From the IMG/VR virus record IMGVR_UViG_3300020408_000003, positions 17,649 through 81,648 of that record: a DNA stretch of 64,000 nucleotides; one strand, given 5' to 3'. Shown piece after piece: positions 1,915-17,707 of the stretch. Positions within the stretch are counted from its first letter, which is position 1; each line of letters opens with the position of its first letter. The notes beneath the pieces were generated by a model. It was not told the origin of the DNA, did no database searches, and was given only the letters and a program-made list of their open reading frames with translations. Position numbers and translations under genes: made by a program. Origin of the DNA: a virus.

Positions 1915-2565
1915 TTAACTTTCCTTTATCATTGTCCAAAAACCGGATCCTGTTTCAAAATCATGATGATCAAATTTACGTCTATGTTCTTTTAAAAAAC
2001 CATCAATAGCTCTAACTGTTCCTTGATGACTAGGATGATAATCATCGCCGCATATGTATTTTACATCTTTTAAAGCTCGTAATTCTAAAGTAACATTGAA
2101 GTAACTGTGTAATCCATCAATATAAACTAGATCCCAATTTGTATCTTTTTCTAATATTTCTAAACTTTTCTTTTGATGTATTATGTGTTTCATCATAAAT
2201 CGAGTCGGATGTTGAGACATTACCCAATTAAAAATTTTTCTTTGAGCATTATCGTTTTCTTCAACATACATCTTCATAAGATATTCAATCGTAGAATTTC
2301 CTTTATGTTTTTCAATCACTCCATTATAATGTTTTTGTTTTAAATAAGGTTCATTCATGTCAAAAGTATCACACGTATGAAGTTCAACATCTTTTGGTAA
2401 ATTATTTAATAATATCCAAGTAGAACATCCCCATGCACAACCGATTTCTAAGACTCTTCCACCAGACTTAACATTACGAGCAAATTCACCAAGAGCTTCT
2501 AAATGTTTTGGATTATTAAATCCTGGAATATCTAAATAGTGTTTCACTGGTTTTGGTATAATCAT
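1915..2565 (-). CDS. Class I SAM-dependent methyltransferase (Methyltransf_24-like)
   Basis: VLEIGCAWGCST motif I, DLVYIDGLH, ICGDDY. Confidence 0.85.
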   Translation of the reverse strand: MIIPKPVKHYLDIPGFNNPKHLEALGEFARNVKSGGRVLEIGCAWGCSTWILLNNLPKDVELHTCDTFDMNEPYLKQKHYNGVIEKHKGNSTIEYLMKMYVEENDNAQRKIFNWVMSQHPTRFMMKHIIHQKKSLEILEKDTNWDLVYIDGLHSYFNVTLELRALKDVKYICGDDYHPSHQGTVRAIDGFLKEHRRKFDHHDFETGSGFWTMIKES

Positions 2566-3932
2566 AATTTAAAATCCTCGAACTTTTTACCAGCTGGCGT
2601 TTTATCAAAAACCGGTGTATCATCAGTTAAAGTTTGGTGACTTTCTTCAACATCGTATAATTTCATTTTACTTCTATCTATTCCAATAACGAAACGTCGA
2701 TGTTGCGTAGGATCGTTATAGCGATTTTTTAATTGTTTAACCATCATTTGTCCCATACCATCAAGTTCTTCAGAAGATATCAAAGCAAACATTAGATCTG
2801 CAGTAGCTGGCAAACCAAAGCTTTCTGACGTATCTTCTAAACCGATATCAGAACTTCCAAACCCAGATCGAGTTGTTTGTGTTGCAGAAAATATGGGTAA
2901 ATCAAATTCTACGGCTAAACCGCGTAATTCTTCGGCAATCGCTTTGACATATGAATAAGAATTAATTGCACCGCCTAAACCTTTCATCCTTGAACTAGCA
3001 CATATATTTAAATAATCTATGAAGATAATATCTGGTTTAAATTGTTTTTTTAATTTTAATTCGTTTAACAAAGATCTAAAATGGCCAGAATGAGCAGCAC
3101 CTGTAGGATATTCTTTTATTATAAGTTTACCGTTTGTTTTACGAGATATGTCTTCAACTTTACTAGTAAACATATCTTTAGACATTTTATCTAATTGATC
3201 GATAGGGACATTTAATAAATTAGCATCAATACGCTCTGCTATTCTTTCTTCAGCCATTTCCATTGTAATATATAAAACATTATAACTATCATTTAATGCA
3301 GCAGCCGCTACATGGCACATGAAAAGAGACTTACCAACCCCAGTGCCAGCAAGAGCAATATTAAGAGTTTTATTAGGAACACCTCCCTTAGTGATTTTGT
3401 TAAAATACTCCAGATCGAACGGTATACGACTTTCTTCCTTATGATAAAATTCAAATCTTTCTCCGGCTTGTTCGACATAATCGTGACCTACATTTGTATC
3501 AAACGCCACACCTAATGCATCTTGTAATAAACTAGGTAAAGCGTTTTTCGTTAACTTTTCGTGTTTACCATCTATGATTGAGATGGATTCCATTACGGCA
3601 TTGTATATAGCTCTATCTTGACACCACTTTTCGGTATTTTCTAAAAGCCATTTTTCATCAACTTCGTCACCATCAAACAAGTTTTGAGCAATATCAACAG
3701 CAGTTGAAAATTGTTCGTTACTTAAATTAGAATGTTCGTTTAATTCTACTAAGAACGATTCTCGAGTTGGCAACTTGTTGTATTTATCAACGAACTTACC
3801 AGCTTCCTTAAATAATGTTTTATACGGACCTTCAAAATATTCTGGTTTGATGAAAGGTAAAACCTTTCGCATATAATCGTCATCAGTTAATAATTTTCGA
3901 AGTATCGTCTGTTCTATTCTCGTATTCATCAA
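2562..3932 (-). CDS. 41: Replicative DNA helicase gp41
   Basis: Walker A AGTGVGKS, YITMEM, IFIDYLN, SATQTTR, SESFGLPATAD; T4 synteny. Confidence 0.95.
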   Translation of the reverse strand: MMNTRIEQTILRKLLTDDDYMRKVLPFIKPEYFEGPYKTLFKEAGKFVDKYNKLPTRESFLVELNEHSNLSNEQFSTAVDIAQNLFDGDEVDEKWLLENTEKWCQDRAIYNAVMESISIIDGKHEKLTKNALPSLLQDALGVAFDTNVGHDYVEQAGERFEFYHKEESRIPFDLEYFNKITKGGVPNKTLNIALAGTGVGKSLFMCHVAAAALNDSYNVLYITMEMAEERIAERIDANLLNVPIDQLDKMSKDMFTSKVEDISRKTNGKLIIKEYPTGAAHSGHFRSLLNELKLKKQFKPDIIFIDYLNICASSRMKGLGGAINSYSYVKAIAEELRGLAVEFDLPIFSATQTTRSGFGSSDIGLEDTSESFGLPATADLMFALISSEELDGMGQMMVKQLKNRYNDPTQHRRFVIGIDRSKMKLYDVEESHQTLTDDTPVFDKTPAGKKFEDFKL

Positions 3933-4227
3933 TTCGCTTTTTTTCCTCTAATTTTACCCAACCGTCTTTTTCACCTCGTTCTATAATATCTTCTAATACT
4001 CTTGCAAGGACAAAATGTAAATCTTCATTATCTACCGTTAAATTTAAATCAGGACTTTCTATTATGCTAAAGTCATACGTAAATTGCTTTCTCTTTCCAT
4101 CGAAAGCTACAGTTCCATATTGAACTACAGTTTCAACAAAATCTCCAGTTAATATTCTGATATGCCAGGCATGTGAATCACTAGAACTTGGTATGAGTTC
4201 GTAGTCTTTATTCTCTTGCATCTTCAA
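3883..4227 (-). CDS. Hypothetical protein at the T4 gene 40 position (possible head vertex assembly chaperone)
   Basis: Lies between uvsX and 41 with a similar size; function inferred from position only. Confidence 0.5.
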   Translation of the reverse strand: MKMQENKDYELIPSSSDSHAWHIRILTGDFVETVVQYGTVAFDGKRKQFTYDFSIIESPDLNLTVDNEDLHFVLARVLEDIIERGEKDGWVKLEEKKRIDEYENRTDDTSKIIN

Positions 4228-5233
4228 TATCTATACTCCTATTACCGCCAATTTGATATGCGCTTTTAATATAGTCTTTAAAATCAGTTTTTTCGAAAAT
4301 TGGTTTCCAAAAATCTTCAACTAAAGTAGATTCATGTCTAACTTTATTTTCTTCATTTGCACGTGCGTACCACCCAGGCGAAGGCTTAGTCACATAACCA
4401 CCGGTCATAGCAATATCAAGTAAACCAGAATAAGATAAAACACCGCCTTCCCAAGAAACAGAAATCGGTATCTTAGATTTTTCTTTTACATACCGTGATT
4501 TTTCTACGTTAATAATAAAATGATAACCTTGAATCTCAGTACCTTTTTTATCTTGTTGCCTACCGATAATCCATATATTGTCAGCACTATAGTATATGCC
4601 AGTACCACCAGATACCACGTCTTTTGGAAATAAACCGATTTCTTTGTATGTATGATTTACTGCAATGAGTGGTATGTTTTTCATATTTAAATATGGTGTA
4701 CACATTCTAAATAAACCTTTGAGAGCTTTTGCTCTTGACATATCCGCAACTGATTTTTCATTAATAGCATCTTCTAATTCTTTTTTAGAAGCTAAGTTAC
4801 CAACAGAATCAATCATGATAATAACTCTATCATTACGATCTATACCTTCTAATTGACTTATCATATCGAATTTTAATTCTTCAACGTTTGTAATAGGTGT
4901 ATGTAAAACACGAGAAGTATCAATGTTAAATTGCTGAAAGTAAGATTGAGGTGAACCAAACTCTGAATCATAAAATAACAGTACAGCGTCTTCATACTTT
5001 TTTAAATATGCAGAAGCCATTATCAAACCGAAAGAAGTTTTAAAATGTTTTGATGGTCCTGCTAGTACTGTCAAACCAGGTGCTAATCCGCCTTCTGTTG
5101 TACCAGATAATGCAACGTTCATCATCGGAACGTCTGTTGGTACCATATCTTTTTCTGTAAAAAATTTACTTTCAGATAGAATATTTGTATATTCTACTTT
5201 ACTATTCTTTTTTAATTTATCCATTATCGACAT
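4208..5233 (-). CDS. uvsX: RecA-like recombinase UvsX
   Basis: AGPSKHFKT, YDSEFG, IDSVGNLASKKE, SGGTGIYYSAD. Confidence 0.95.
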   Translation of the reverse strand: MSIMDKLKKNSKVEYTNILSESKFFTEKDMVPTDVPMMNVALSGTTEGGLAPGLTVLAGPSKHFKTSFGLIMASAYLKKYEDAVLLFYDSEFGSPQSYFQQFNIDTSRVLHTPITNVEELKFDMISQLEGIDRNDRVIIMIDSVGNLASKKELEDAINEKSVADMSRAKALKGLFRMCTPYLNMKNIPLIAVNHTYKEIGLFPKDVVSGGTGIYYSADNIWIIGRQQDKKGTEIQGYHFIINVEKSRYVKEKSKIPISVSWEGGVLSYSGLLDIAMTGGYVTKPSPGWYARANEENKVRHESTLVEDFWKPIFEKTDFKDYIKSAYQIGGNRSIDIEDARE

Positions 5234-5242
5234 ATATGTCTC

Positions 5243-6199
5243 CTAATTTTTCTTATAATAACTTTTATACCACTCAACAAAATCACGAATTCCATTTTCT
5301 ATATTCGTCATTGGAACGTAGCCTAATTTTTTAATATTGGTTATATCAGCTAATGTATGACGAATGTCAGCTTTGTGCATATCACTAAATTTTATTTTTG
5401 CCTTACGACCTAAATTTTCTTCAATTAATGATACAAACTTCATGAGCGGTATACTCTCTCCACTTCCAATATTAAATATTTCATGCGTATTAATTCTTTT
5501 CACTTTATCTATGAGTAATTGTACACCATTTACGATATCTTGTACATAGGTAAAATCGCGAGACATTTCTCCATGACCATAAATTTCAATAGGTTGATCT
5601 TCTATGATTTTATCAGTAAATTTGTAAAGAGCCATATCTGGTCGACCATGCGGTCCGTATACAGTAAAGAATCTAAATCCTATTGATGAGGATAAATTGC
5701 TGTGTTTAAATTGACATTCATTAACGTATTTTGACCAAGCATAAGGATTTTTATGATGTTTAAATTCCATACTTTCTGTAAAGGGCGGTGTTTGACCAGC
5801 ATAAACGCTTGAAGACGAAGCATACACAATTGGTATTTGTAATTTTTCTGCTAATTTAATTATGTGCTGTGTTCCAAGTATATTTGTGTTGATATAATTA
5901 TCAGGATTTTCTAATGAATTTCTTACACCAGCATAAGCTGCTAAATGAACTATAACATCAATATCTTCAAAATCTTTTTCATTTAAATCAATTATATCTT
6001 TATTGTGTACATTTATATTAAAGGTTTTTAAAAGATCTGCACGGTTTTCTTTTAGCCACGGATTGTAATACGAATTAAAATTATCGCAACCGGTTACATC
6101 ATTTCCGTATGTTTTTAATTCCCTTGATCCTTTTTCCACAAAATTTGTCGCTAAATGATATCCTATAAACCCAGCGATACCAGTAATATAAATTTTCAT
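5243..6199 (-). CDS. NAD-dependent nucleotide-sugar epimerase (UDP-glucuronate 4-epimerase-like)
   Basis: TGIAGFIG, HLAAYAGVR, YASSSSVY, YxxxK, RFFTVYGPHGRPDMA. Confidence 0.9.
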   Translation of the reverse strand: MKIYITGIAGFIGYHLATNFVEKGSRELKTYGNDVTGCDNFNSYYNPWLKENRADLLKTFNINVHNKDIIDLNEKDFEDIDVIVHLAAYAGVRNSLENPDNYINTNILGTQHIIKLAEKLQIPIVYASSSSVYAGQTPPFTESMEFKHHKNPYAWSKYVNECQFKHSNLSSSIGFRFFTVYGPHGRPDMALYKFTDKIIEDQPIEIYGHGEMSRDFTYVQDIVNGVQLLIDKVKRINTHEIFNIGSGESIPLMKFVSLIEENLGRKAKIKFSDMHKADIRHTLADITNIKKLGYVPMTNIENGIRDFVEWYKSYYKKN

Positions 6200-7002
6200 T
6201 CATAACTCACGTTTTGTTCTTTTTCTCTATCATCTTTTTCATATTGCAATCTATATGTATTGTTTTTCTTGATAACGTATTCTAATATAGGCATACTATT
6301 TGTAAAATTAATCCATGCAGATAAATCTTTTGGAAAGCATGCTCCTCCAAAACCTCGTTTTCCATCAAATCCTGGTACTCTTGTATGAGATTGGCCAATT
6401 CTAGGATCTGTACCAATAGCATTTATAATCTTACCAAAGTTTCCACCGAAATTATCTACTGCATCGTATAATTCATTATACCATAAAACCTTTGTTGCTA
6501 AAAAACAATTGATTCCGTATTTTACAAAAGATGCGTCAGTCAATGACATATGAAACGTAGGACAGGGTTTACATATACTATACTCTTTATAAAATTGTTC
6601 TACCTTTTCTGTTGTTTCTTTTTGACCTCCAAAGACTTGAATTGAAGGATTGATTATATCTTCGTTAGCATTCTTTTCTGTAAGAAATTCTGGATTATAT
6701 ACTATTTTTAAATTATTTAAATTTTTTAAAATATTAGGTGGTATTGTAGATTTTATAACTATAATTCCACATTTAGTATTTTTTAATTTATTTAAAATAT
6801 TTTCTAATATGTATGTATTACAAGTACCGTTTTCACTCATAGGAGTTGGCACACAAACAAACGTTATATCAGAATTTATATCAGAATAATTTTCATCATT
6901 ATTATATTTAGGATCTATAATTTGTTTTTTAACGTCGTATTGAAAAGCATAATCAACTGCTTTACCAACAAATCCGTGACCAATGATCGTGATATTAAGC
7001 AT
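6196..7002 (-). CDS. UDP-glucose/GDP-mannose dehydrogenase family protein (short form without the C-terminal domain)
   Basis: GHGFVG, CVPTP, IKSTIPP, NPEFL, catalytic GFGGACFPKD. Confidence 0.88.
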   Translation of the reverse strand: MLNITIIGHGFVGKAVDYAFQYDVKKQIIDPKYNNDENYSDINSDITFVCVPTPMSENGTCNTYILENILNKLKNTKCGIIVIKSTIPPNILKNLNNLKIVYNPEFLTEKNANEDIINPSIQVFGGQKETTEKVEQFYKEYSICKPCPTFHMSLTDASFVKYGINCFLATKVLWYNELYDAVDNFGGNFGKIINAIGTDPRIGQSHTRVPGFDGKRGFGGACFPKDLSAWINFTNSMPILEYVIKKNNTYRLQYEKDDREKEQNVSYE

Positions 7003-7008
7003 TGCGAA

Positions 7009-8034
7009 TTAAACCATAAATTCATTTAATGGATGATCTATCTTTCTTTGTACACGTATTTCTTTCGGTCTTTTACCGGTATATAATCTTTTAAAACCTC
7101 CTGCATTTTTATATGGACCTGCTCTACAAACATTATCAAGAAATCGAATAAAAATACAAAGAGTATCTTCGTGTTGGGCTGGTGTTGTACCTAATTTTTC
7201 TGATAAAGCTATAAGACCTGTATCTGTAAAATCATCAAGAGCCATTCCCTTTGGTCGTTCAAAACATTCTAGCAATCCATCTCGAGCATTCGATCCACAC
7301 ATCAACATGCTATTTGGATCTACGTTATTCGGATGATAGTGAGCTATATCAGCAGATGCCATCGCAAATGGAAAGTTCCAACGTTTGATTCCTTCTTGTA
7401 AATGATATTCATTTAAAAAATTAGTAGTTGTACGAATTGAACGTGGAGTATTAGCTCTTACAAATTTAGAACATCTTTCAGCTTGATAAACTCCGTCAGT
7501 GCACATATACTCTGCGACGCTTTGACCTTTACGAGGATGCGGAGGAATATTACCTACAGACGTATTCATAGATCTTTTTTGTCTTTTCCACTTTCGAGTA
7601 AGATCAATCATCTCATCTATCGTTTCATATTTTCCGAAATGAGTTACGATGCTATTTCTATATCCGTGATCGTAAGTACCGCTAAATCCACTACCAGTTG
7701 CTCTATGAAATATATAAGTCCATATCCAGGTTTTTAAAGTCCAACTTTCTGTTTTATATTTTAAAATACGCTCTTTAACTTGATCTGGTCTTTTATGAAA
7801 CTGAGGACTTTTTTCTTTGTTTTGCAAATCTTCAAGAACATAATTAAATCCTTCGGTCCAACGAGAAACAGAATTATACACGCCGTTTTGCATTAATGGA
7901 TCATTTACTATTTTATTAGCTTCTTCTCCTAACGGATCGGTTGTGCCTATATGACAATTGTCTTCTAACCATTTTGCTCTTGGCCAGAAATATTCAACAT
8001 ATGTTTTATAATTTTCTCTTTGTACTAAATTCAT
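7009..8034 (-). CDS. Putative amino acid:DNA transferase (aGPT-Pplase1-like) DNA hypermodification enzyme
   Basis: N-terminal DPLMQ...YNSVSR..E and C-terminal EDTLC...RF resemble the DPIL..F.NV.R.D and E..LCE..KY motifs of the family as recalled; located in a modification operon. Confidence 0.55.
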   Translation of the reverse strand: MNLVQRENYKTYVEYFWPRAKWLEDNCHIGTTDPLGEEANKIVNDPLMQNGVYNSVSRWTEGFNYVLEDLQNKEKSPQFHKRPDQVKERILKYKTESWTLKTWIWTYIFHRATGSGFSGTYDHGYRNSIVTHFGKYETIDEMIDLTRKWKRQKRSMNTSVGNIPPHPRKGQSVAEYMCTDGVYQAERCSKFVRANTPRSIRTTTNFLNEYHLQEGIKRWNFPFAMASADIAHYHPNNVDPNSMLMCGSNARDGLLECFERPKGMALDDFTDTGLIALSEKLGTTPAQHEDTLCIFIRFLDNVCRAGPYKNAGGFKRLYTGKRPKEIRVQRKIDHPLNEFMV

Positions 8035-8042
8035 CGTAAATC

Positions 8043-9008
8043 CTATATTGTAAGTGGATTGCTGCCGAAATCGTTTCTACGATAATTGGGTGGAGCGATA
8101 TGTACACTTGATCCTTTTTCCATAAAATTCAATGCGTATTTTTCTGGATCCATATCATACCAAAAACGAGGTGGCATAACAATATTTCCTTTTGATTCGT
8201 CTGTAAGAATACTTATAAAGTCATCAGTAATACGTTTTCTTTCAGATTGAGAACCAAAAAATGGTGTACCTTTGTAATATCCAGTTTTAGGAAGTTTACG
8301 CTTTTCATATTCTACTGGCACGGGTGCAGCAAATTTAGGATCATCAGTACACTCTTTAGCTTGCTTTATGTATTCTTTAATCATTGCTTTTAGATCAACG
8401 TTATTGTGTCGAAGTAAATGATGTCGAATGTCTATGGAACCAAAACAAAATGTAATATTACCTTCTATTGGTTTATCTCGAAATAAATTTTTTAAACCAG
8501 TTTTTAAAGCTCCGTGTAAAGTAGCTCCATCTCTACGGTATATCTTATCTGTTTTATCGCTAAAAGCTAAAGTATGAGAATCGCCTACAGTAATTCCTTT
8601 CATATTAAGATCTTCTTGTTTTAAGATAGGAATATTTTTTAATAAAGCTTCAAGCTTATCGCACCATTGCTCAGTTACTTTATGATACGTACTAGAATTT
8701 CCAATTCTTTTTCTAAAATTATCGGTCCATATCTTTATATCCCATTCGAGTGATACAATCTTTTTACACATAAAGAGAGTATTAATGCGATCGTAAATAT
8801 CTCTATCGATACCACCAAAAAGATTAATTGATCCAGTAAAGTTAACTCCATGATTAATGTATACTATATCTGCATTTTGAATATTTTTTGTGCACGTATG
8901 ATCTATCTTCGCATTTAGTTGATCTGCCCATATTTGAGCATAACCAAGATTATGAGACTTCGGGGCTTTCGGTATATTCGACAGAGGATTGGTAATTACC
9001 AAAGACAT
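8043..9008 (-). CDS. Two-domain protein: T4 beta-glucosyltransferase-like N-terminal domain plus SGNH-like domain
   Basis: SINLFGG...WDIK resembles T4 BGT SINFFGG...TDIR; the C-terminal half has GDSH, G.IDIRHH and SSVH. Start placed at 9008 because of a GGAG SD. Confidence 0.5.
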   Translation of the reverse strand: MSLVITNPLSNIPKAPKSHNLGYAQIWADQLNAKIDHTCTKNIQNADIVYINHGVNFTGSINLFGGIDRDIYDRINTLFMCKKIVSLEWDIKIWTDNFRKRIGNSSTYHKVTEQWCDKLEALLKNIPILKQEDLNMKGITVGDSHTLAFSDKTDKIYRRDGATLHGALKTGLKNLFRDKPIEGNITFCFGSIDIRHHLLRHNNVDLKAMIKEYIKQAKECTDDPKFAAPVPVEYEKRKLPKTGYYKGTPFFGSQSERKRITDDFISILTDESKGNIVMPPRFWYDMDPEKYALNFMEKGSSVHIAPPNYRRNDFGSNPLTI

Positions 9009-9240
9009 ATTCAACTCCTGCTTCATTATATATTTTTTCAGATTCAGACCATCTTCGTGTCCAAATATCGGGATATCTGTACTTAGGCATTATAACACGT
9101 TTTATACCCATTTGTACAATGTTTTTTGTATATTCAGGCGAAGGCGGAAGACCGTAAATATATAAATCTGTGCCAATCATGACTTCGCCTTTATCGGTTT
9201 CTTTGGCTAAATCTATGTATTTCATATTGTATGAACTCAT
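8950..9240 (-). CDS. Degenerate dCMP-deaminase paralogue (no HxE or CxxC)
   Basis: LYIYGLPPSPEYTKNIVQMGIKRV aligns with MYITGLPTCHRCAKAIIQVGIKRV of the 9704 gene. Confidence 0.7.
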   Translation of the reverse strand: MSSYNMKYIDLAKETDKGEVMIGTDLYIYGLPPSPEYTKNIVQMGIKRVIMPKYRYPDIWTRRWSESEKIYNEAGVEYVFGNYQSSVEYTESPEVS

Positions 9241-9707
9241 ACTTTTCTCCCGAGTTTTACATCTAAAAATTTTTTTAGTTCGTCTAACATTTTTTGCTCG
9301 TATATTCTACCAGCTTCACCATTAAAATTGCGATTACGCGGTGAGGGATGATCAATTTTGTAATTATCTATAGCATATTTTTTACACACTCTAGCTACAA
9401 GATGACCAAGCGCTATGATAACTTTTTTTCCTTTTACTGCTTTTTGTAAAGCGGATTCATCAACTTGTTTAATATCTTTACAGTTCATGATATGCGGTAT
9501 TACATTATGAAAATCCCATTCTTCTAAACCAAGTCTAACAGTCCAATCTTCTAATCGAGCAAAAGTTCCGTGTGGCTGTATTTTACCTTCTTTAAATTTT
9601 TTTCTAAAGGTATCAGAATTTCTAGAAGAAGGAGATTCTCCTAATATTAATACATCATTAGACAATTTGTGATTACTTAAAAAATCTAAAACATTTGATA
9701 ATTTCAT
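9237..9707 (-). CDS. Uracil-DNA glycosylase superfamily protein
   Basis: Motif A-like ILGESPS, IIALG, motif B-like HPSPRN. Confidence 0.75.
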   Translation of the reverse strand: MKLSNVLDFLSNHKLSNDVLILGESPSSRNSDTFRKKFKEGKIQPHGTFARLEDWTVRLGLEEWDFHNVIPHIMNCKDIKQVDESALQKAVKGKKVIIALGHLVARVCKKYAIDNYKIDHPSPRNRNFNGEAGRIYEQKMLDELKKFLDVKLGRKV

Positions 9708-10168
9708 TGATCTGGCTCCACTATTTGATAATATATTTTTGCTTCTTTAAATAAACTTTCTGTTAATTTCCAAGAATCAATCCATCTTTCTGGTATTTTT
9801 GCTCTTATAAAAACTCTTTTTATTCCAACTTGTATTATGGCTTTAGCACATCGATGACATGTTGGAAGACCAGTTATATACATTGCGGCTCCTTCTAATG
9901 GTACTCCACTATTCGTAGCATTGTATATAGCATTTTCTTCAGCATGAACTATATAGTCATATTTAAGAATTCGGTTACTATATTTATCAGGACAGTCTTT
10001 TATACCACGAGGAAACCCATTATATCCTTGAGTTAATATTTGTCCTTTTTTACCAACTACTATAGCACCGATCTTTGTCGATGGATCTTTAGACCAAGAC
10101 GAAATCTGATCTGCAATATCTAAATATCTTTTATCCCAATCATTTAACAAGGTGAAAATGCCTTTCAT
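9704..10168 (-). CDS. cd: dCMP deaminase
   Basis: SKDPSTKIGA, GYNGFPRG, HAEENAI, PTCHRC. Confidence 0.92.
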   Translation of the reverse strand: MKGIFTLLNDWDKRYLDIADQISSWSKDPSTKIGAIVVGKKGQILTQGYNGFPRGIKDCPDKYSNRILKYDYIVHAEENAIYNATNSGVPLEGAAMYITGLPTCHRCAKAIIQVGIKRVFIRAKIPERWIDSWKLTESLFKEAKIYYQIVEPDQ

Positions 10169-10835
10169 ATACGTGAAGATTTTGTACTTGCCAAATCATA
10201 TGACCTAATGATATTTTATCACCAGTATCGTATTCTTCAAACTTGCAATCATTCCAATCTTTAACTAATCTATTCATGATTTCAAACTGCCAAGCGTAAT
10301 CATTTTTATAACCAAAGACTACATCATTAGAACGCATTTGAACTACAGCATGTAAGATATTATCTCGTATGTAATACGTAACGCTATTAGTACAAATAAA
10401 ATCGTTTTTACCGTTTTCATTATATTCCATCCAAATTGAAGGGCGATTGTAAACCATACAAGCACGACGGCTATCTGGGTTTCTTATCAGTTCATCTAAT
10501 ACTTGACCGTATTGGTTATGGTATTTATCATTGAAAATTAGATGACCGTAGTTAGAATTAATTTCTCCATGTTTATTTGCTGAATATTCCCAACATTTAG
10601 GTGGATCTTCAAATTCTCTTATGTCATTAATATTAGTCGACTGACTATCATACCATTTTATCTCGCTGTCGATATATTCTTGACTTGGTGTTCCGAATAT
10701 AGATGGTTCATCTGCTATGAATGATGCACCGATTAATTCAATCGTTGACATACCACTTCTATCAATAGTAAATGCTTTATCGTATAATTCATCGATAAAA
10801 TGTTTACGTATGTCGTTTACAGTCATCATTCGCAT
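10140..10835 (-). CDS. 42: dCMP hydroxymethylase (T4 gp42-like thymidylate synthase homologue)
   Basis: DFICTN and MRSNDVVFGYKNDYAWQ closely match T4 gp42. Asp occupies the base-specificity position where ThyA has Asn. A separate thyX is present. Confidence 0.85.
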   Translation of the reverse strand: MRMMTVNDIRKHFIDELYDKAFTIDRSGMSTIELIGASFIADEPSIFGTPSQEYIDSEIKWYDSQSTNINDIREFEDPPKCWEYSANKHGEINSNYGHLIFNDKYHNQYGQVLDELIRNPDSRRACMVYNRPSIWMEYNENGKNDFICTNSVTYYIRDNILHAVVQMRSNDVVFGYKNDYAWQFEIMNRLVKDWNDCKFEEYDTGDKISLGHMIWQVQNLHVYERHFHLVK

Positions 10836-11235
10836 CTTGTACTCTCTTTCTCAAATCTGATGTTGAAAATTTGTGGTCTCTTTTATTAAAGTGTAATTGT
10901 ATACCACGCTTTTTACATTCATCCTTTCCAGTAAAATCTTTATCACGGTATTCTTCACCTAAAATTCTTATATCGATCGGATACATGTTTATTATATCAC
11001 ATAATTCTGTTTCTGTACAATAAATAATTACTTCATCAACGTATTTTATAGCGCATAATTGTGCTTGTCTTTCTACAATAGATTGAACTGGAGGATTTTT
11101 GTTCTCTCTATCAAGAGAAGGATCTACTTGTAAGCCAACTATCAAATGATCACAAACTGATTTTGCTTCACGTAACATCGCTACATGACCAGCATGTAAT
11201 AAATCAAAAGTGCTGCAAGTAAATCCGACTTTCAT
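10804..11235 (-). CDS. Cytidylyltransferase (TagD/glycerol-3-phosphate cytidylyltransferase-like)
   Basis: FDLLHAGH HxGH motif, YVDEVI, RDHKFSTS. Confidence 0.88.
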   Translation of the reverse strand: MKVGFTCSTFDLLHAGHVAMLREAKSVCDHLIVGLQVDPSLDRENKNPPVQSIVERQAQLCAIKYVDEVIIYCTETELCDIINMYPIDIRILGEEYRDKDFTGKDECKKRGIQLHFNKRDHKFSTSDLRKRVQDANDDCKRHT

Positions 11236-11405
11236 TCTACTGCATCTTCAATACAAACAAAACTCGTACCAAGTTCTGCTTCTTCTTTATGCAATATTGC
11301 ATTCTTCCAACATTCATATTCACCAGTATAATAATCAAGTGATTCGCCTTCGACTATTCCTTGAGCGTTAATCACAACAGCGACAAGTATATAACCTAAG
11401 ATCAT
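11232..11405 (-). CDS. Small hypothetical protein (57 aa; not in the ORF track)
   Basis: MILGYILVAVVINAQG...EYECW...FVCIEDAVE; ATGA overlaps with both neighbours. Confidence 0.7.
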   Translation of the reverse strand: MILGYILVAVVINAQGIVEGESLDYYTGEYECWKNAILHKEEAELGTSFVCIEDAVE

Positions 11406-11764
11406 GATTCCTCGTCTGATTTAATTACTTTACTTTTTTTCTTTCGATTTAAAAAATCATGATCTGCGTTTTGACCTTGCATTTTACCGCGACAATATTC
11501 TACGATGAATGAACCGTAGTTAATCATATCTTTTGCAGAATCTTCGATTGATTCGAAGTTAGGATCATAGTCAGGATCGTTTTGCATTGCTTCGATAACT
11601 GATCGCATACGAAGCATTTTAGCATGAATAATATCTAAAAGCGTTGCTACACCTTGTGGATAATAATCTGCTTGTTGTATGCGCGAATTAGGATTTTGAT
11701 AATCATTACCTTTTTTAGCTTGTAGTTCTGCGCATTCTTGTAAAACTTTAATTGATTCTTTCAT
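11402..11764 (-). CDS. Nucleotide-modification-associated helical protein (Nmad1/DUF1599-like)
   Basis: KKGNDY and ESIEDSAKDMINY pattern; first gene of the modification operon. Confidence 0.6.
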   Translation of the reverse strand: MKESIKVLQECAELQAKKGNDYQNPNSRIQQADYYPQGVATLLDIIHAKMLRMRSVIEAMQNDPDYDPNFESIEDSAKDMINYGSFIVEYCRGKMQGQNADHDFLNRKKKSKVIKSDEES

Positions 11765-11781
11765 TATACACCTCCGAATAT

Positions 11782-11810
11782 ATTATACACTATTAAATTT
11801 TTTTTGTACA
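11782..11810 (-). promoter_or_regulatory. sigma70-type early promoter of the DNA-modification operon
   Basis: TGTACA-N17-TATAAT followed by a GGAGG SD. Confidence 0.75.
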
Positions 11811-12887: not shown

Positions 12888-13811
12888 TTACACATTACGA
12901 TAGACATATTCTAATGCTCTATCTGCTTCTTTTTTAATCGGACGTTTTTGATACCAATTACCGTTATCGATATCAAACTCACGACATAGATTTGTGATTT
13001 CATCCACGTTTATAGGATATTTAGACTTAATAGCATTACCAGCTATAGCAACCATAATTTGATACATCTTATGATACCAACCAGTTTTAGTAATCGTCTT
13101 ATATTCATTTGCTAATTGCATAGGCCAAAATGGACAATCGCGATAAGAAGACCAAGAAAAATCATTATCAAGTTTATTTTTCTTATATTCTAAAACTTCT
13201 TTCTGCAATGCTTCAGGTAATCTATCGAAAAAACTATTAAGCGTAGCTTTTTCTGGCATAGGATGTTTTGCTATTAAAGCATCGGGATCAAGAACATCAC
13301 CATTGTTACTGAATATAAAATTAAAAGCACGATCATATTTCGCAGGGATATAATACATTCTCGATAAGTCTTTAGTTTGCTTATCGCCAAGTTCACCGAG
13401 TTCGGATTGGAGTGCAAACCAGAATTTTCTAATTCTATCGTTCGGGACATTGTTTCTAACTGGGAACACGAGTCGGAACTTTGGAGCATTAGTCTTAGAG
13501 CTTGCAGTACTATAACACACAAAACGCAAATGACTAAAGCGAGTAAGTAGCTCATCTTTTAAATCTCCTTTAAATTCAAAATCATCAACATCAACACAAC
13601 ACCATTGAGACCATTCGATAACGTTATCGTTTGCTCGTGTAGTATCTTTTTTATACACAGCAGGAGATATTAGAACAGCGTCTTTCTTTGATTTAAGTTT
13701 TCTTTTAGATAAATCATATAATAATTTTTCGAAAGAATCAAAATCTTGATGTTCTAATATCTTATCAGTTTTGTTATCGAATATATTTTTAAATATTGTG
13801 TATTTAATCAT
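12888..13811 (-). CDS. Archaeo-eukaryotic primase/primase-polymerase-like protein
   Basis: hhhDhD motif (CCVDVDD), YSTAS...PKFRLVFP, D.SRMYYIP. Confidence 0.7.
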   Translation of the reverse strand: MIKYTIFKNIFDNKTDKILEHQDFDSFEKLLYDLSKRKLKSKKDAVLISPAVYKKDTTRANDNVIEWSQWCCVDVDDFEFKGDLKDELLTRFSHLRFVCYSTASSKTNAPKFRLVFPVRNNVPNDRIRKFWFALQSELGELGDKQTKDLSRMYYIPAKYDRAFNFIFSNNGDVLDPDALIAKHPMPEKATLNSFFDRLPEALQKEVLEYKKNKLDNDFSWSSYRDCPFWPMQLANEYKTITKTGWYHKMYQIMVAIAGNAIKSKYPINVDEITNLCREFDIDNGNWYQKRPIKKEADRALEYVYRNV

Positions 13812-14279: not shown

Positions 14280-16769
14280 TTAAACAAAGAAATCTTCTAA
14301 CGTAGCTTTTTCTTCGGCAGACCACCCTACAGCGTTAAGTATGAAATTAAGTGGCTCGATGAAAGTTTTTTCAAACTGTAAATTATAGTCAACGTATTTG
14401 TGAAGTTTAAATTCCGTTGGTAAAACATCAGGAAATGCTATAACATTTTCGTGAATTGAATTTGGTATTTTTAAATATGTAAATTTAATCCTATCACCGT
14501 TAACTACTGATTCATATTTTCTTGTTAATTTATTATGTATTAAATATTTATTATATAGTATAGAACCGCGTACATGAATCGGAGTACCTTTCTTGTAAGT
14601 ACCACGATTTTGCCAATTAGTTATATTAGATATTGAACGAGGAAAACTTACTTCTTCTGGTGGCAATTTACAAAATTCTTCTTTAAAGCTTGCGATATAT
14701 TCTTGAGTTTGCCGTTCTGAACCTGATAATATAATCTTAAATATTTCTTTAAACTTATCTCGGCAAATCTCAGGAGTCGAAGATTTTATGGCTTCGATAC
14801 CCATAATCTTAAGTTTAGGTTCAGCATATTGTACACCTTCTGAATTGTGAACATTAAGAATATATCTTTTCTTTGCAGTCCAAATGCCACGATCAGCAAT
14901 AACTTCTCTACCCATTTCCATACGATTTTTATGCGCATTCATGTTATTAAACAATTTATCATAAGCTTTTTTCAGAGTTGGTTCAAAATGTTCAATACAG
15001 ATTTTATCAAGAAATTTAACTGGATCTTTTGGTTTTAATTGTTTTATTAAAGGACCAAAATTGATATACAAGCTATCAGTATCAATAGCGATAACATAAT
15101 CTTTATCATTTGTTTTCATTACCTCGTTCATAGTTTCGTTCATTGCTTTTTCAGCCCATTGTATGGCAAGCTGACCAGATAAAGTTACACCTTCTGCTAA
15201 TCGTAAATCAAAATATTTAAAGTATTGATTACCTAAAGCACCATAAAGAGAGTTCATCAAAATCTTAATAGCCATTTGCTGATTACCAAGTGTGTTGATT
15301 TCAGATTGTAGACTTTCATCTTTTGTCTTTTGATATTGTTGCTCTGTAGCTAACATTATCTTTTTTATAGACGTACGTTCTGCATAATAATCTTCGATGA
15401 TAGTTGGTAATACACCATCAAATTTTTTATGATACGTTGAACCATTTGCGGCAACTGCAAATTTAGTTTTATCTGGTAATCCTCCGTTTAAATAATAATC
15501 AACACCGTTTTTCTGACTTTGATCGATAAGAGTTTCTGGCGACATATTATATTGTACGATAAGATTAGGATATAGAGAATTTAAATCGAAAGAAACTACC
15601 CAATCATGAGCGCCAACATGTGGATCTTTCACATAACCACCAGCAAATTTAAATTTACGCGCTTCTGGTAATATAGCAGGTGGAACTAATTTTTGTGAAT
15701 ATAGTTTTCTATGAATGATAGATTCCCATATCGATGTTACTCCAAAGGTATCTTGATAATTAACACCGCCTTTATAGGCTATAGTCATGGCTAAAGTAAT
15801 CAATCCCATTTTATCTTCAAGACGATCGACTAATTGTACGTCTTTCATATTATAATCGATATACTTTTGAAAGTCATCTTTATAAAGATTTCTTAATGAA
15901 CCAGACTCTTCATAAGAAAGTTTCTTTTCACCAAGAACAACATAAGCTATATGATTCAATTTATATGACTCTTGTGGACCGTACGTATAACCAAACTTTT
16001 GAAAGAGTTCAAGATAATCTAAAGTTTGTATACCTCTTATATCGTATACTTCTTCTTTTTTACCTCTACGTGTAATCTCTCTACTTTCTACCATACCCCA
16101 TGGCGAAAACCTTTTTACACTATCAGTACCAAGGATACGAGCAGTACGATTTATTAAATATGGAATATCAAAAAATCTTGTATTCCAACCAGTAATAACG
16201 TCGGGCATTTGATCTGGTTTAGACCACCACTGTAAAAATTTATTGAATAGATCTTTTTCATCTTTACATTTTACGTAAACAACTGGTTTGATAAGTGCTT
16301 TATCTACGTCATAATCACCATAACCCCATACCCAAAATACATCAGACTTACTCGATTTAACAGTAATAGCTAAAACATCTTGAGTTGCTTCGCTTGGATG
16401 TGGGAAACCATCGTCATAATCTGTTTCGATATCGATAGTGACTACGTTAATCCATTCTCTTTTAAATTTTATTTCGTTTGGAAATTTATTGGTTATATAC
16501 TGATGTATATAATTTGTAGTACCAAACACTTTACGGTTTGCTACTTCTTTATTATTTTCTATCCATGTTTTTGCTTCACGCATTGTCATAAAACTTAGTC
16601 TACCAACGTTATGACCGTACAACGAATGCCAACCAGTTTCTTTTTTAGATGAAACAAAAAACTCTGGCGAAAACTTATCTTTACGATATACGTTTTTACC
16701 AGAGCTATCATAGCCACGATACAACATAGAATTACCGTAGCGAACTACTGAAGTATAAAAATTAGACAT
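14280..16769 (-). CDS. 43: Family B DNA polymerase gp43
   Basis: DIET exonuclease motif, SFDLNSLYP, KILMNSLYGALGN, IDTDS, KKRY. Confidence 0.97.
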   Translation of the reverse strand: MSNFYTSVVRYGNSMLYRGYDSSGKNVYRKDKFSPEFFVSSKKETGWHSLYGHNVGRLSFMTMREAKTWIENNKEVANRKVFGTTNYIHQYITNKFPNEIKFKREWINVVTIDIETDYDDGFPHPSEATQDVLAITVKSSKSDVFWVWGYGDYDVDKALIKPVVYVKCKDEKDLFNKFLQWWSKPDQMPDVITGWNTRFFDIPYLINRTARILGTDSVKRFSPWGMVESREITRRGKKEEVYDIRGIQTLDYLELFQKFGYTYGPQESYKLNHIAYVVLGEKKLSYEESGSLRNLYKDDFQKYIDYNMKDVQLVDRLEDKMGLITLAMTIAYKGGVNYQDTFGVTSIWESIIHRKLYSQKLVPPAILPEARKFKFAGGYVKDPHVGAHDWVVSFDLNSLYPNLIVQYNMSPETLIDQSQKNGVDYYLNGGLPDKTKFAVAANGSTYHKKFDGVLPTIIEDYYAERTSIKKIMLATEQQYQKTKDESLQSEINTLGNQQMAIKILMNSLYGALGNQYFKYFDLRLAEGVTLSGQLAIQWAEKAMNETMNEVMKTNDKDYVIAIDTDSLYINFGPLIKQLKPKDPVKFLDKICIEHFEPTLKKAYDKLFNNMNAHKNRMEMGREVIADRGIWTAKKRYILNVHNSEGVQYAEPKLKIMGIEAIKSSTPEICRDKFKEIFKIILSGSERQTQEYIASFKEEFCKLPPEEVSFPRSISNITNWQNRGTYKKGTPIHVRGSILYNKYLIHNKLTRKYESVVNGDRIKFTYLKIPNSIHENVIAFPDVLPTEFKLHKYVDYNLQFEKTFIEPLNFILNAVGWSAEEKATLEDFFV

Positions 16770-17486: not shown

Positions 17487-17707
17487 TTTAGCCCCATCTT
17501 TTCATTTAATCTAACTGTTAAACTATCTACAGTTTCGTGCATATAATCTGACCTAGCATGTCTAAGTAAAAGTATAGCAACTTCTCTATTTGTAGATTTC
17601 TGTCTAGCGGTTGTCCAACCCATATACAGTTTGATTAATAAAGTTTTTAAAGATTTTGATAGGCTTTCAAGCAGACTCGTTGAGTAGTTGAGCACTATTG
17701 TTGTCAT
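17483..17707 (-). CDS. Hypothetical protein
   Basis: ORF with a GGGAG SD, downstream of hsp20. Confidence 0.6.
   Translation of the reverse strand: MTTIVLNYSTSLLESLSKSLKTLLIKLYMGWTTARQKSTNREVAILLLRHARSDYMHETVDSLTVRLNEKMGLK

Follow-up and report, generated by a model that had tools for sequence, protein, structure and literature searches.

The IMG/VR virus record IMGVR_UViG_3300020408_000003 (81.6 kb; CheckV completeness about 40%) was analysed over a stretch of 64,000 nucleotides, positions 17,649 to 81,648, which is called the window here and has a G+C content of about 32%. Its gp43-uvsX interval holds eleven close-packed open reading frames (ORFs; 5243-11764), adjoining members of which overlap by 4-77 nt or are separated by gaps of 6-9 nt; all genes under discussion lie on the minus strand (Table 1). 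A sequence-only reading, made from the letters and a list of ORFs, had taken this interval for a cytosine hypermodification operon at the place of genes 42 and b-gt in T4, and both the eleven ORFs and the T4 order 43 - 42 - b-gt - uvsX were recovered as described. The locus, which belongs to an uncultured marine T4-like phage, is probably a new system for the hypermodification of 5-hydroxymethylcytosine (hmC), in which a hydroxymethylase of the gp42 type is accompanied by two proteins of 327 and 341 amino acids (aa).

The probable identity of the modified base can be read from the gp42-type enzyme. Residues 3-230 align with residues 5-225 of T4 gp42 (1b49_A) at 51% identity, and in the phmmer alignment to gp42 structures the motif MRSNDVVFGYKNDYAW stands opposite MRSNDVVFGFRNDYAW of T4 gp42. 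Cys148, which corresponds to the catalytic Cys146 of E. coli ThyA, is invariant in 14 of 14 aligned homologues. In ThyA, Asn177 sets base specificity, and Asp169 is changed to Asn in every 5-hydroxy-dCMP synthase tested (Lee et al. 2026, PMC13326640). The window enzyme, like that of T4, has Asp at the specificity site (KND and RND respectively), and M6 gp58, which comes from a 5-hydroxymethyldeoxyuridine (5-hmdU) phage, has Asn. At the position of Asp169 the window enzyme and T4 gp42 both read RSND and keep the Asp; RB69 gp48, a proven 5-hydroxy-dCMP synthase (PMC13326640), reads RSQN. Asp179 is retained in the alignment together with RSND. Two other identities were rejected: that of a 5-hydroxycytosine synthase, by the Asp retained at ThyA position 169, and that of a dUMP hydroxymethylase producing hydroxymethyluracil (hmU), by a specificity site with Asp and not Asn. 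Since RSND...ND is shared with T4 gp42, unlike RB69 gp48 and M6 gp58, the 231-aa enzyme is a cytosine-specific hydroxymethylase by every sequence test applied. Hydroxymethyl-dCMP (hm-dCMP) is very probably made by the phage. The intact 154-aa dCMP deaminase and ThyX, both already called correctly, form a dTMP branch, and the MazG-like pyrophosphohydrolase is a candidate dCTPase.

The slot of b-gt is occupied by the gene for the 327-aa protein. Residues 6-97 align with residues 1-101 of T4 beta-glucosyltransferase (beta-GT) with an hhalign probability of 96.7% and E 3.7e-10 when alignments of 44 and 42 sequences are compared, and with E 0.013 only when the alignments are thin. Asp96 falls opposite beta-GT Asp100 and is not conserved across the 327-aa family. 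An AlphaFold2 model built from 13 homologues (predicted local distance difference test, pLDDT, 85) was used for a fold search, which did not cover the N-terminal part. For residues 138-322 Foldseek finds SGNH/GDSL hydrolases (E 2e-4, probability 1.00), and VIA-align reaches Z 10.9 for this domain (4rw0_B, root-mean-square deviation (rmsd) 3.4, 151 residues aligned), with 49 chains at Z of at least 8, nearly all of them SGNH proteins of three-layer alpha/beta/alpha build. GDSH (148-151), G-x-I-D-x-R-H-H (196-203) and S-V-H (307-309) are invariant in 13 split and 7 fused forms of the protein. In the model G148-D149-S150-H151, block I with its nucleophilic Ser, sits after strand 144-148; the invariant His309 lies near the C-terminal end of the SGNH domain and is a candidate for the catalytic His of block V.

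Family scans give this protein no name: Pfam and NCBIfam, SGNH models included, return no family, the PHROG matches are of unknown function only, and an Atlas search with the N-terminal 138 residues had no usable match. The UDP-glucose-binding Rossmann half of beta-GT is not seen in it, as the hhalign match stops at residue 97 and residues 138-322 match SGNH hydrolases and no beta-GT. Across the 81.6-kb record PF09198 (T4 beta-GT) has no match up to E 1, the positive control T4 scoring 1e-99, and PF00534 (GT1) has none, in keeping with the earlier remark that no intact GT-B glucosyltransferase is evident. The 327-aa protein is read as a beta-GT descendant in which the acceptor side would have been retained and a Ser/His domain acquired in place of the half that binds UDP-glucose; the beta-GT-N/SGNH fusion first suggested from the letters is strongly supported by these two sets of matches.

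The second protein, of 341 aa, had been called AADT-like, after the amino acid:DNA transferases (AADTs). Its model is mediocre (pLDDT 63) and all helical. A comparison with 48,161 chains, which does not lean on Foldseek, ranked PaMx11 gp46 first (8z2m_A; Z 7.4, rmsd 5.0, 212 residues aligned), a score within the range of 7-8 that is common for helical models; DUF2419 and helix-hairpin-helix (HhH) glycosylases ranked after it. PaMx11 gp46 is a 5-phosphomethyl-dU glycinyltransferase, an AADT (PMC11472151). Foldseek found nothing at E 1e-3 or better for the same model, and its weak top rows were 8-oxoguanine glycosylases. Among the members of the closest protein language-model clusters, PF18723 (HMUDK_hel) has a frequency of 13%, 10% and 36%, and PF18724 (ADDT) one of 12%. 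There are 13 close relatives among 5.8 billion clusters, none with a Pfam domain, and the family profile collects 121 representatives (50% identity) among 1.84 billion proteins; a tblastn search of 50,697 deposited phage genomes found none that encodes a 341-like protein.

Across 57 aligned members of the 341-aa family Glu289 never varies, and conservation of Cys293 is 90% or higher. This E-x3-C spacing equals that of Glu243 and Cys247 in PaMx11 gp46 and of ETVLC in M6 gp51; the likeness is one of spacing. Glu243 of gp46 is a proposed metal ligand and Cys247 the proposed nucleophile at C6 (Wen et al., PMC11472151). The fold match and the spacing weakly suggest that the 341-aa protein works like an AADT. 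It may be a distant relative or an analogue of these transferases; the name AADT-like keeps its structural and motif basis, lacks Pfam and hhalign support, and stands weakly overall.

Which of the eleven genes belong together? An IMG/VR scan with the 341-aa protein, combined with tblastn searches with the window proteins, yielded 40 related loci of 43-93% identity; the counts overstate independence, because many loci are near-duplicates of each other. In the 24 loci that extend 3 kb or more beyond the 341-aa gene on its upstream side, the hydroxymethylase and the 341-aa gene are present every time, the 327-aa gene in 22, and the dCMP deaminase and the MazG-like gene in 21 each; counts for the other upstream genes are given in Table 1. 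The stretch from the 341-aa gene to uvsX, in the 22 loci that have both, contains UDP-glucose-dehydrogenase-like (Ugd-like) and epimerase genes in 4, the Ugd-like gene alone in 4, a deaminase alone in 8 and no gene in 6. The idea of eleven genes as one conserved unit therefore does not hold, given this variation and a UDG-like gene that is absent from all 40 loci. By gene content, the conserved core is the hydroxymethylase, the dCMP deaminase and the 327-aa and 341-aa proteins, not the sugar genes; accessories confined to particular lineages are the genes for the Ugd-like protein, the epimerase, the cytidylyltransferase, the Nmad-like protein and the UDG. The 327-aa/341-aa module is conserved, widespread and undescribed, and the centre of gravity of the locus shifts to it from the sugar genes. 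No published description of the pair was found, the papers retrieved on phage base modification dealing only with glycosylation, TET-based and thymidine pathways, with the proviso that the gene-cluster tables supplementing PMC8989533 and PMC13326640 might list relatives.

The association of the two proteins extends to gene fusion. Eight representatives of the 341-aa family exceed 450 aa; seven consist of a 327-like N-terminal part (E 1e-42 to 1e-66) and a 341-like C-terminal part (E 1e-19 to 1e-44), the eighth being 341-like only, and the seven fall into independent 50%-identity clusters. At the level of sequence the 327-aa and 341-aa proteins form an obligate pair. Scanning IMG/VR with the fusions revealed at least 298 stretches that encode an SGNH-type domain, and the best 80 of them comprise 15 loci with the fused form (Group 1) and 65 with a stand-alone 327-like gene (Group 2). 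In Group 1 a thymidylate-synthase homologue lies within 10 kb in 13 of the 15 loci, and the six that were aligned all have the cytosine-type Asp together with Asp169. A pyridoxal phosphate (PLP) enzyme just downstream in 12 of the 15 matches phrog_7093 'threonine dehydratase' (E 6e-35) and aligns over 229 residues with M6 gp52 (pairwise E 8e-4), the PLP decarboxylase of thymidine hypermodification (PMC8989533). Some fused-form loci (L049:9504-9989, L049:13802-14815) also have a dUTPase and a DHH/DHHA1 phosphoesterase near a cytosine-type thymidylate-synthase homologue.

Group 2 (L053-L128, e.g. L071:10001-14603 and L062:12021-15436) has a different set of neighbours. A myo-inositol-1-phosphate synthase is present in all 65 loci, a 152-aa protein without assigned function in 60, an FkbM methyltransferase in 55, and in 54 a 396-aa protein that carries PF18723 at 31.9 bits, above the cut-off; a family-B polymerase lies about 5 kb downstream, and no thymidylate-synthase homologue was found within 10 kb. 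Group 2 is thus a third flavour of the system, and its gene content points to a DNA modification related to inositol. Cultured phages account for 43 records that encode the SGNH-type protein (Aeromonas 38, Tenacibaculum 3, Stenotrophomonas 2), and the Aeromonas phages 44RR2.8t, 31 and Aes012 are among its carriers. ORF233c of 44RR2.8t (795 aa; L042:6013-8400) has an SGNH-type N-terminal part and a C-terminal part with a weak PF18723 match (E 0.0036), which has the string SFHDEIIWLNE in common with the helical protein of Group 2; a sodium:solute symporter gene adjoins ORF233c, and phage 31 has the fused form too. This phage has a gp42-type hydroxymethylase (43% identity, RSND...ND). Aes012 (L045:2773-6047) has the split form, with phrog_14998 next to it, and phage 25 is likewise split. 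PF09198 was not found in 44RR or Aes012, and BLASTP of 44RR ORF233c and Aes012_229 against the 341-aa protein or each other stayed at chance level.

Together, these observations favour, with a probability of roughly 55%, an hmC hypermodification module of new make-up that would act in two steps. The MazG-like pyrophosphatase would deplete dCTP, the gp42-type enzyme would convert dCMP to 5-hydroxymethyl-dCMP, and the dCMP deaminase and ThyX would maintain the supply of dTMP. Once the DNA has been replicated, its hmC would be the substrate of the 327-aa and 341-aa proteins. The SGNH domain may esterify the hydroxyl of hmC and so activate it, the role played in thymidine hypermodification by the P-loop 5-hmdU DNA kinase. 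The 341-aa enzyme would then attack C6 through Cys293, expel the ester and add a nucleophile, which could be an amino acid, an amine or a polyol; this C6-thiol mechanism is modelled on the AADTs that act on phosphorylated 5-hmdU. Fusion of the pair, or a complex between them, would shield the reactive intermediate. In the wider form of the proposal the pair would be a widespread cytosine counterpart of thymidine hypermodification, in which an ester replaces the phosphate as activating group, a tentative extension that we hold to be somewhat doubtful.

The comparison with thymidine hypermodification has two sides. In phages M6, PaMx11 and ViI a 5-hmdU DNA kinase, an AADT and a PLP decarboxylase cooperate (PMC8989533, PMC11472151). 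As in that pathway, a hydroxymethylase of the thymidylate-synthase type yields a 5-hydroxymethylpyrimidine nucleotide, an all-helical, putatively glycosylase-like enzyme carries Glu-x3-Cys, and the fused-form relatives of the window module have a gp52-like PLP enzyme downstream. Unlike in that pathway, the base is cytosine and not uracil, no P-loop kinase was seen (none was searched for) and its place is taken by the beta-GT-N/SGNH chimera, the 341-aa family falls below the PF18724 and PF18723 models, and the clade of the window is without a PLP, radical-SAM or flavin tailoring enzyme. With T4 the locus shares the slot (43 ... 42 ... x ... uvsX), a closely similar hydroxymethylase (E 1e-69) and homology of the first 100 or so residues of the 327-aa protein to beta-GT; it differs in the SGNH-fold domain that replaces the UDP-glucose-binding domain, in the missing PF09198 match, and in having a second protein that is obligatorily associated. 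The nearest cultured counterparts, 44RR2.8t ORF233c and Aes012_228 (phrog_17781 / phrog_13881, function unknown), belong to the same beta-GT-N/SGNH family at 27-31% identity, and in 44RR the gp42-type hydroxymethylase, the lack of PF09198 and the fusion of the SGNH protein to a helical domain recall the window. Unlike the window, these two phages have a helical partner of the HMUDK_hel type and not of the 341-aa family, and their SGNH-type gene lies near motA/asiA, not gene 42, with symporter or UDP-galactopyranose mutase neighbours.

Several results weigh against the two-step proposal. To our knowledge an SGNH enzyme that acts on a DNA base has no precedent, and the ester-activation step is inferred. 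For the 341-aa protein the fold evidence comes from a model of low confidence and a Z score of the kind that helical models commonly reach; Pfam, NCBIfam and PHROG scans give it no family, PF18724 matches neither it nor anything in the record (one of 57 family members does, at E 0.00099), and hhalign comparisons of its family are insignificant both with M6 gp51 (probability 0.9%, single-sequence template) and with an HMUDK_hel-type cluster. Family profiles A1 and A2 returned nothing beyond chance-level rows against solved structures. No donor or tailoring enzyme can be identified in the window's own clade, where PLP, inositol-phosphate synthase, FkbM and HMUDK_hel-type genes are absent from the window and all 40 related loci. 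PF18723 was not found in the record, the P-loop kinase domain itself not having been searched for, and with a completeness of about 40% the part of the genome outside the record could still encode a glycosyltransferase or a kinase. Sugar-related neighbours of 327-like genes recur (the Ugd-like and epimerase genes, the UDP-galactopyranose mutase of Aes012, the solute symporter of 44RR), and in phages with such neighbours a glycosyl modification fits at least as well.

Could the 327-aa protein, with assistance from the 341-aa protein, be a new kind of DNA glycosyltransferase that places an unusual sugar such as a uronic acid on hmC? The homology of its N-terminal part to T4 beta-GT and its synteny with b-gt would suit such a role, and the Ugd-like and epimerase genes come directly after, both in the window and in L002-L004 and L040, its closest relatives. 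These two enzymes would lead from UDP-glucose to UDP-glucuronate and on to UDP-galacturonate, a route that we regard as no better than an outside chance; 6zl6 and MoeE5, which we take to be UDP-glucuronate 4-epimerases, are among the best PDB matches to the epimerase. In Aes012 a UDP-galactopyranose mutase lies two genes from the 327-like gene, and the 43-uvsX interval of RB69 holds sugar-nucleotide genes that feed DNA modification (PMC13326640). However, the nucleotide-sugar-binding half expected of a GT-B enzyme has given way to an SGNH fold in which a set of Ser and His residues is invariant, and fused-form loci carry the PLP enzyme and not sugar genes. The Ugd-like protein is without its UDP-binding domain. 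Sugar genes stand between the core and uvsX in 8 of 22 loci, the epimerase in 4 only, so the ground for refutation named in the sequence-only reading, sugar enzymes that are not conserved beside gene 42, applies in part. Phage C48C1 has homologues of the pair next to uvsX (epimerase 42% identity, Ugd-like 39%) and no hydroxymethylase in its whole genome. Because the pair is patchy among the loci and present in C48C1 without a hydroxymethylase, it is a separable accessory module. A sugar adduct of this kind is rather unlikely here: a cytosine modification module other than plain T4-type glucosylation is supported, and hypermodification is strengthened by the conserved core, whereas the uronic acid offered as an example in the sequence-only reading is weakened.

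The arabinosyl-5-hydroxycytosine systems of RB69 and DLP3 likewise place a modification cassette with donor-synthesis genes between gp43 and uvsX of a T4-like phage (PMC13326640). Their thymidylate-synthase homologue has Asn at position 169 and makes 5-hydroxy-dCMP, unlike the window enzyme, which keeps Asp, and their arabinosyltransferases are GT-B enzymes (PMC13326640), none of which was seen in the window record. Cassettes for DNA modification and for sugars are swapped in and out of the gp43-uvsX interval, in RB69 (L129) as well. C48C1 is the closest deposited phage by gp43 (54% identity), followed by cyanomyophages at about 47%; in its gp43-uvsX interval (L043:16501-20247) a DNA methyltransferase, a primase-like gene, the epimerase and the Ugd-like gene replace the hydroxymethylase core.

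The 327-aa protein might also act alone and leave an O-acylated hmC, for example an O-acetylated one, with the 341-aa protein as a non-catalytic DNA-binding or base-flipping partner or as a separate glycosylase-like enzyme. The O-acetyltransferases OatA and PatB are among the SGNH fold matches (ranks 26 and 31), the beta-GT-like part could already recognise hmC, and other lineages have an HMUDK_hel-type domain instead of the helical partner, which would suit a DNA-binding module that can be exchanged. The strictly conserved Glu and nearly invariant Cys, held in E-x3-C spacing across 57 divergent sequences, argue instead for catalysis by the 341-aa protein, and the gp52-like PLP enzyme of fused-form loci suggests an adduct derived from an amino acid and not a simple acyl group; simple acylation is unlikely. 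A locus without any DNA modification, in which the SGNH protein is a host-envelope polysaccharide esterase working with the sugar and cytidylyltransferase genes and the 341-aa protein a repair glycosylase, is very improbable: most SGNH matches are carbohydrate or peptidoglycan esterases, HhH glycosylases are among the 341-aa fold matches and C48C1 has sugar genes without a hydroxymethylase, but the pair is fused in 7 independent 50%-identity clusters, is accompanied by a cytosine-type hydroxymethylase in 24 of 24 clade loci and 13 of 15 fused-form loci, sits among early replication genes, and includes a part homologous to a DNA-acting enzyme.

If two-step hypermodification of hmC by the pair is correct, amino-acid-derived chemistry would extend to cytosine by way of a different activating enzyme, and esterification would be a new activation chemistry for DNA bases. 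In the literature found, the hypermodified cytosines of phages are glycosylated hmC or glycosylated 5-hydroxycytosine, and non-sugar, amino-acid-derived base chemistry has been worked out for thymine only. Many uncultured marine T4-like phages would carry 5-methylcytosines substituted with an amino acid, an amine or a polyol, and cultured Aeromonas phages related adducts. The module is not rare, as judged by the 121 family representatives of the 341-aa protein and the 298 or more IMG/VR stretches with an SGNH-type partner. New base adducts bear on the resistance of phages to restriction and CRISPR nucleases, on basecalling and assembly of marine viromes, and on tools for enzymatic labelling of hmC. 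The cultured phages 44RR2.8t, 31 and Aes012 are practical test organisms, which makes the question directly testable. For Aeromonas phages PMC8056088 presents other candidate modification genes, and the available portion of that paper does not mention the SGNH-type family.

Table 1. Features in and around the gp43-uvsX interval of the window, with counts in related loci where they differ from those of the core
Feature	Position	Strand	Remarks
ThyX, flavin-dependent thymidylate synthase	992-1669	minus	separate dTMP source
gp41	2562-3932	minus	
gp40-like gene	3883-4227	minus	
uvsX	4208-5233	minus	
NAD-dependent nucleotide-sugar epimerase/dehydratase, 318 aa	5243-6199	minus	accessory; PF01370 1.8e-44
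UDP-glucose-dehydrogenase-like protein, 268 aa	6196-7002	minus	accessory
341-aa all-helical protein	7009-8034	minus	distantly AADT/HhH-glycosylase-like
327-aa chimera	8043-9026	minus	beta-GT-like N-terminal part and SGNH-fold domain
Relic of an older dCMP deaminase gene, 96 aa	8950-9240	minus	internally deleted
UDG-superfamily-like protein, 156 aa	9237-9707	minus	private insertion; 0/24 and 0/40 related loci
dCMP deaminase, 154 aa	9704-10168	minus	intact; PF00383 E 2.3e-20
gp42-type dCMP hydroxymethylase, 231 aa	10140-10835	minus	phmmer, 1b49, E 1.1e-69
Cytidylyl/adenylyltransferase-like enzyme, 143 aa	10804-11235	minus	HxGH family; 13/24 related loci
57-aa ORF without family	11232-11405	minus	elsewhere only in the closest relative, L002
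Nmad1/DUF1599-like protein, 120 aa	11402-11764	minus	accessory; 4/24 related loci
Sigma70-like TGTACA-17-TATAAT match upstream of GGAGG and the first gene's ATG	11782-11810	minus	consensus match only
MazG-like NTP pyrophosphohydrolase, 143 aa	13811-14242	minus	next to gp43; candidate dCTPase
DNA polymerase gp43	14280-16769	minus	

The accessory genes were named with varying success in the sequence-only reading. Its calls of an epimerase and of a cytidylyltransferase were right, the latter enzyme matching PF01467 (1.3e-13) with a further weak Pantoate_ligase match (E 0.0011) at residues 8-41. The UDP-sugar dehydrogenase has PF03721 and PF00984, and the GGxCxPKD motif can be read in it; a Pfam scan of its 268 residues found no C-terminal UDP-binding domain, and NCBIfam scores are all far below their cut-offs. 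For the Nmad-like protein a similarity is visible and weak, DUF1599 reaching E 0.007 and 17 bits under a cut-off of 25 bits, beside a match to phrog_18404 'hydrolase' (1.8e-13). The UDG-like protein shows GESPS and HPSP motifs, its family match being weak (PF03167 E 0.0028, 18.2 bits against a cut-off of 24.3 bits), and up to E 5 no PDB relative other than chance-level rows was found. An activated donor could come from the cytidylyltransferase-like enzyme. In this sub-lineage the Ugd-like/epimerase pair could add variety to the adduct, or its role could be unrelated and directed at the host.

Transcription from one sigma70 promoter was likewise part of the earlier proposal. The match before the first gene (11810-11782) exists, and a lone promoter for all eleven genes is not established, because sigma70-like sites in this AT-rich stretch are not enriched over shuffles (54 observed, 58.9 +/- 10.2 expected) and equally good matches lie inside the operon (11019-10991 and 9118-9089). 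The late-promoter box TATAAATA does not occur within 5243-11810.

The dead deaminase was correctly recognised. Compared with the full-length deaminase of locus L003, the 96-aa ORF has lost the HAE segment and reads PPSPEY in place of PTCSEC, so that the zinc ligands are gone; it is an internally deleted copy of an L003-type gene, and its identity as a regulatory paralogue was rejected on this ground. The intact deaminase upstream of the relic is a second allele, 55% identical, and the UDG-like gene stands between the two. Even L002, with a 341-aa protein 93% identical to that of the window, lacks the UDG-like gene, and the arrangement suggests that a replacement or insertion took place recently. 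Between the MazG-like gene and the operon, a 307-aa ORF (12888-13811) matches phrog_9765 'DNA primase' (E 1e-45) over just the N-terminal 190 or so of its 939 positions, and it is kept in 12 of the 40 related loci and in phage C48C1.

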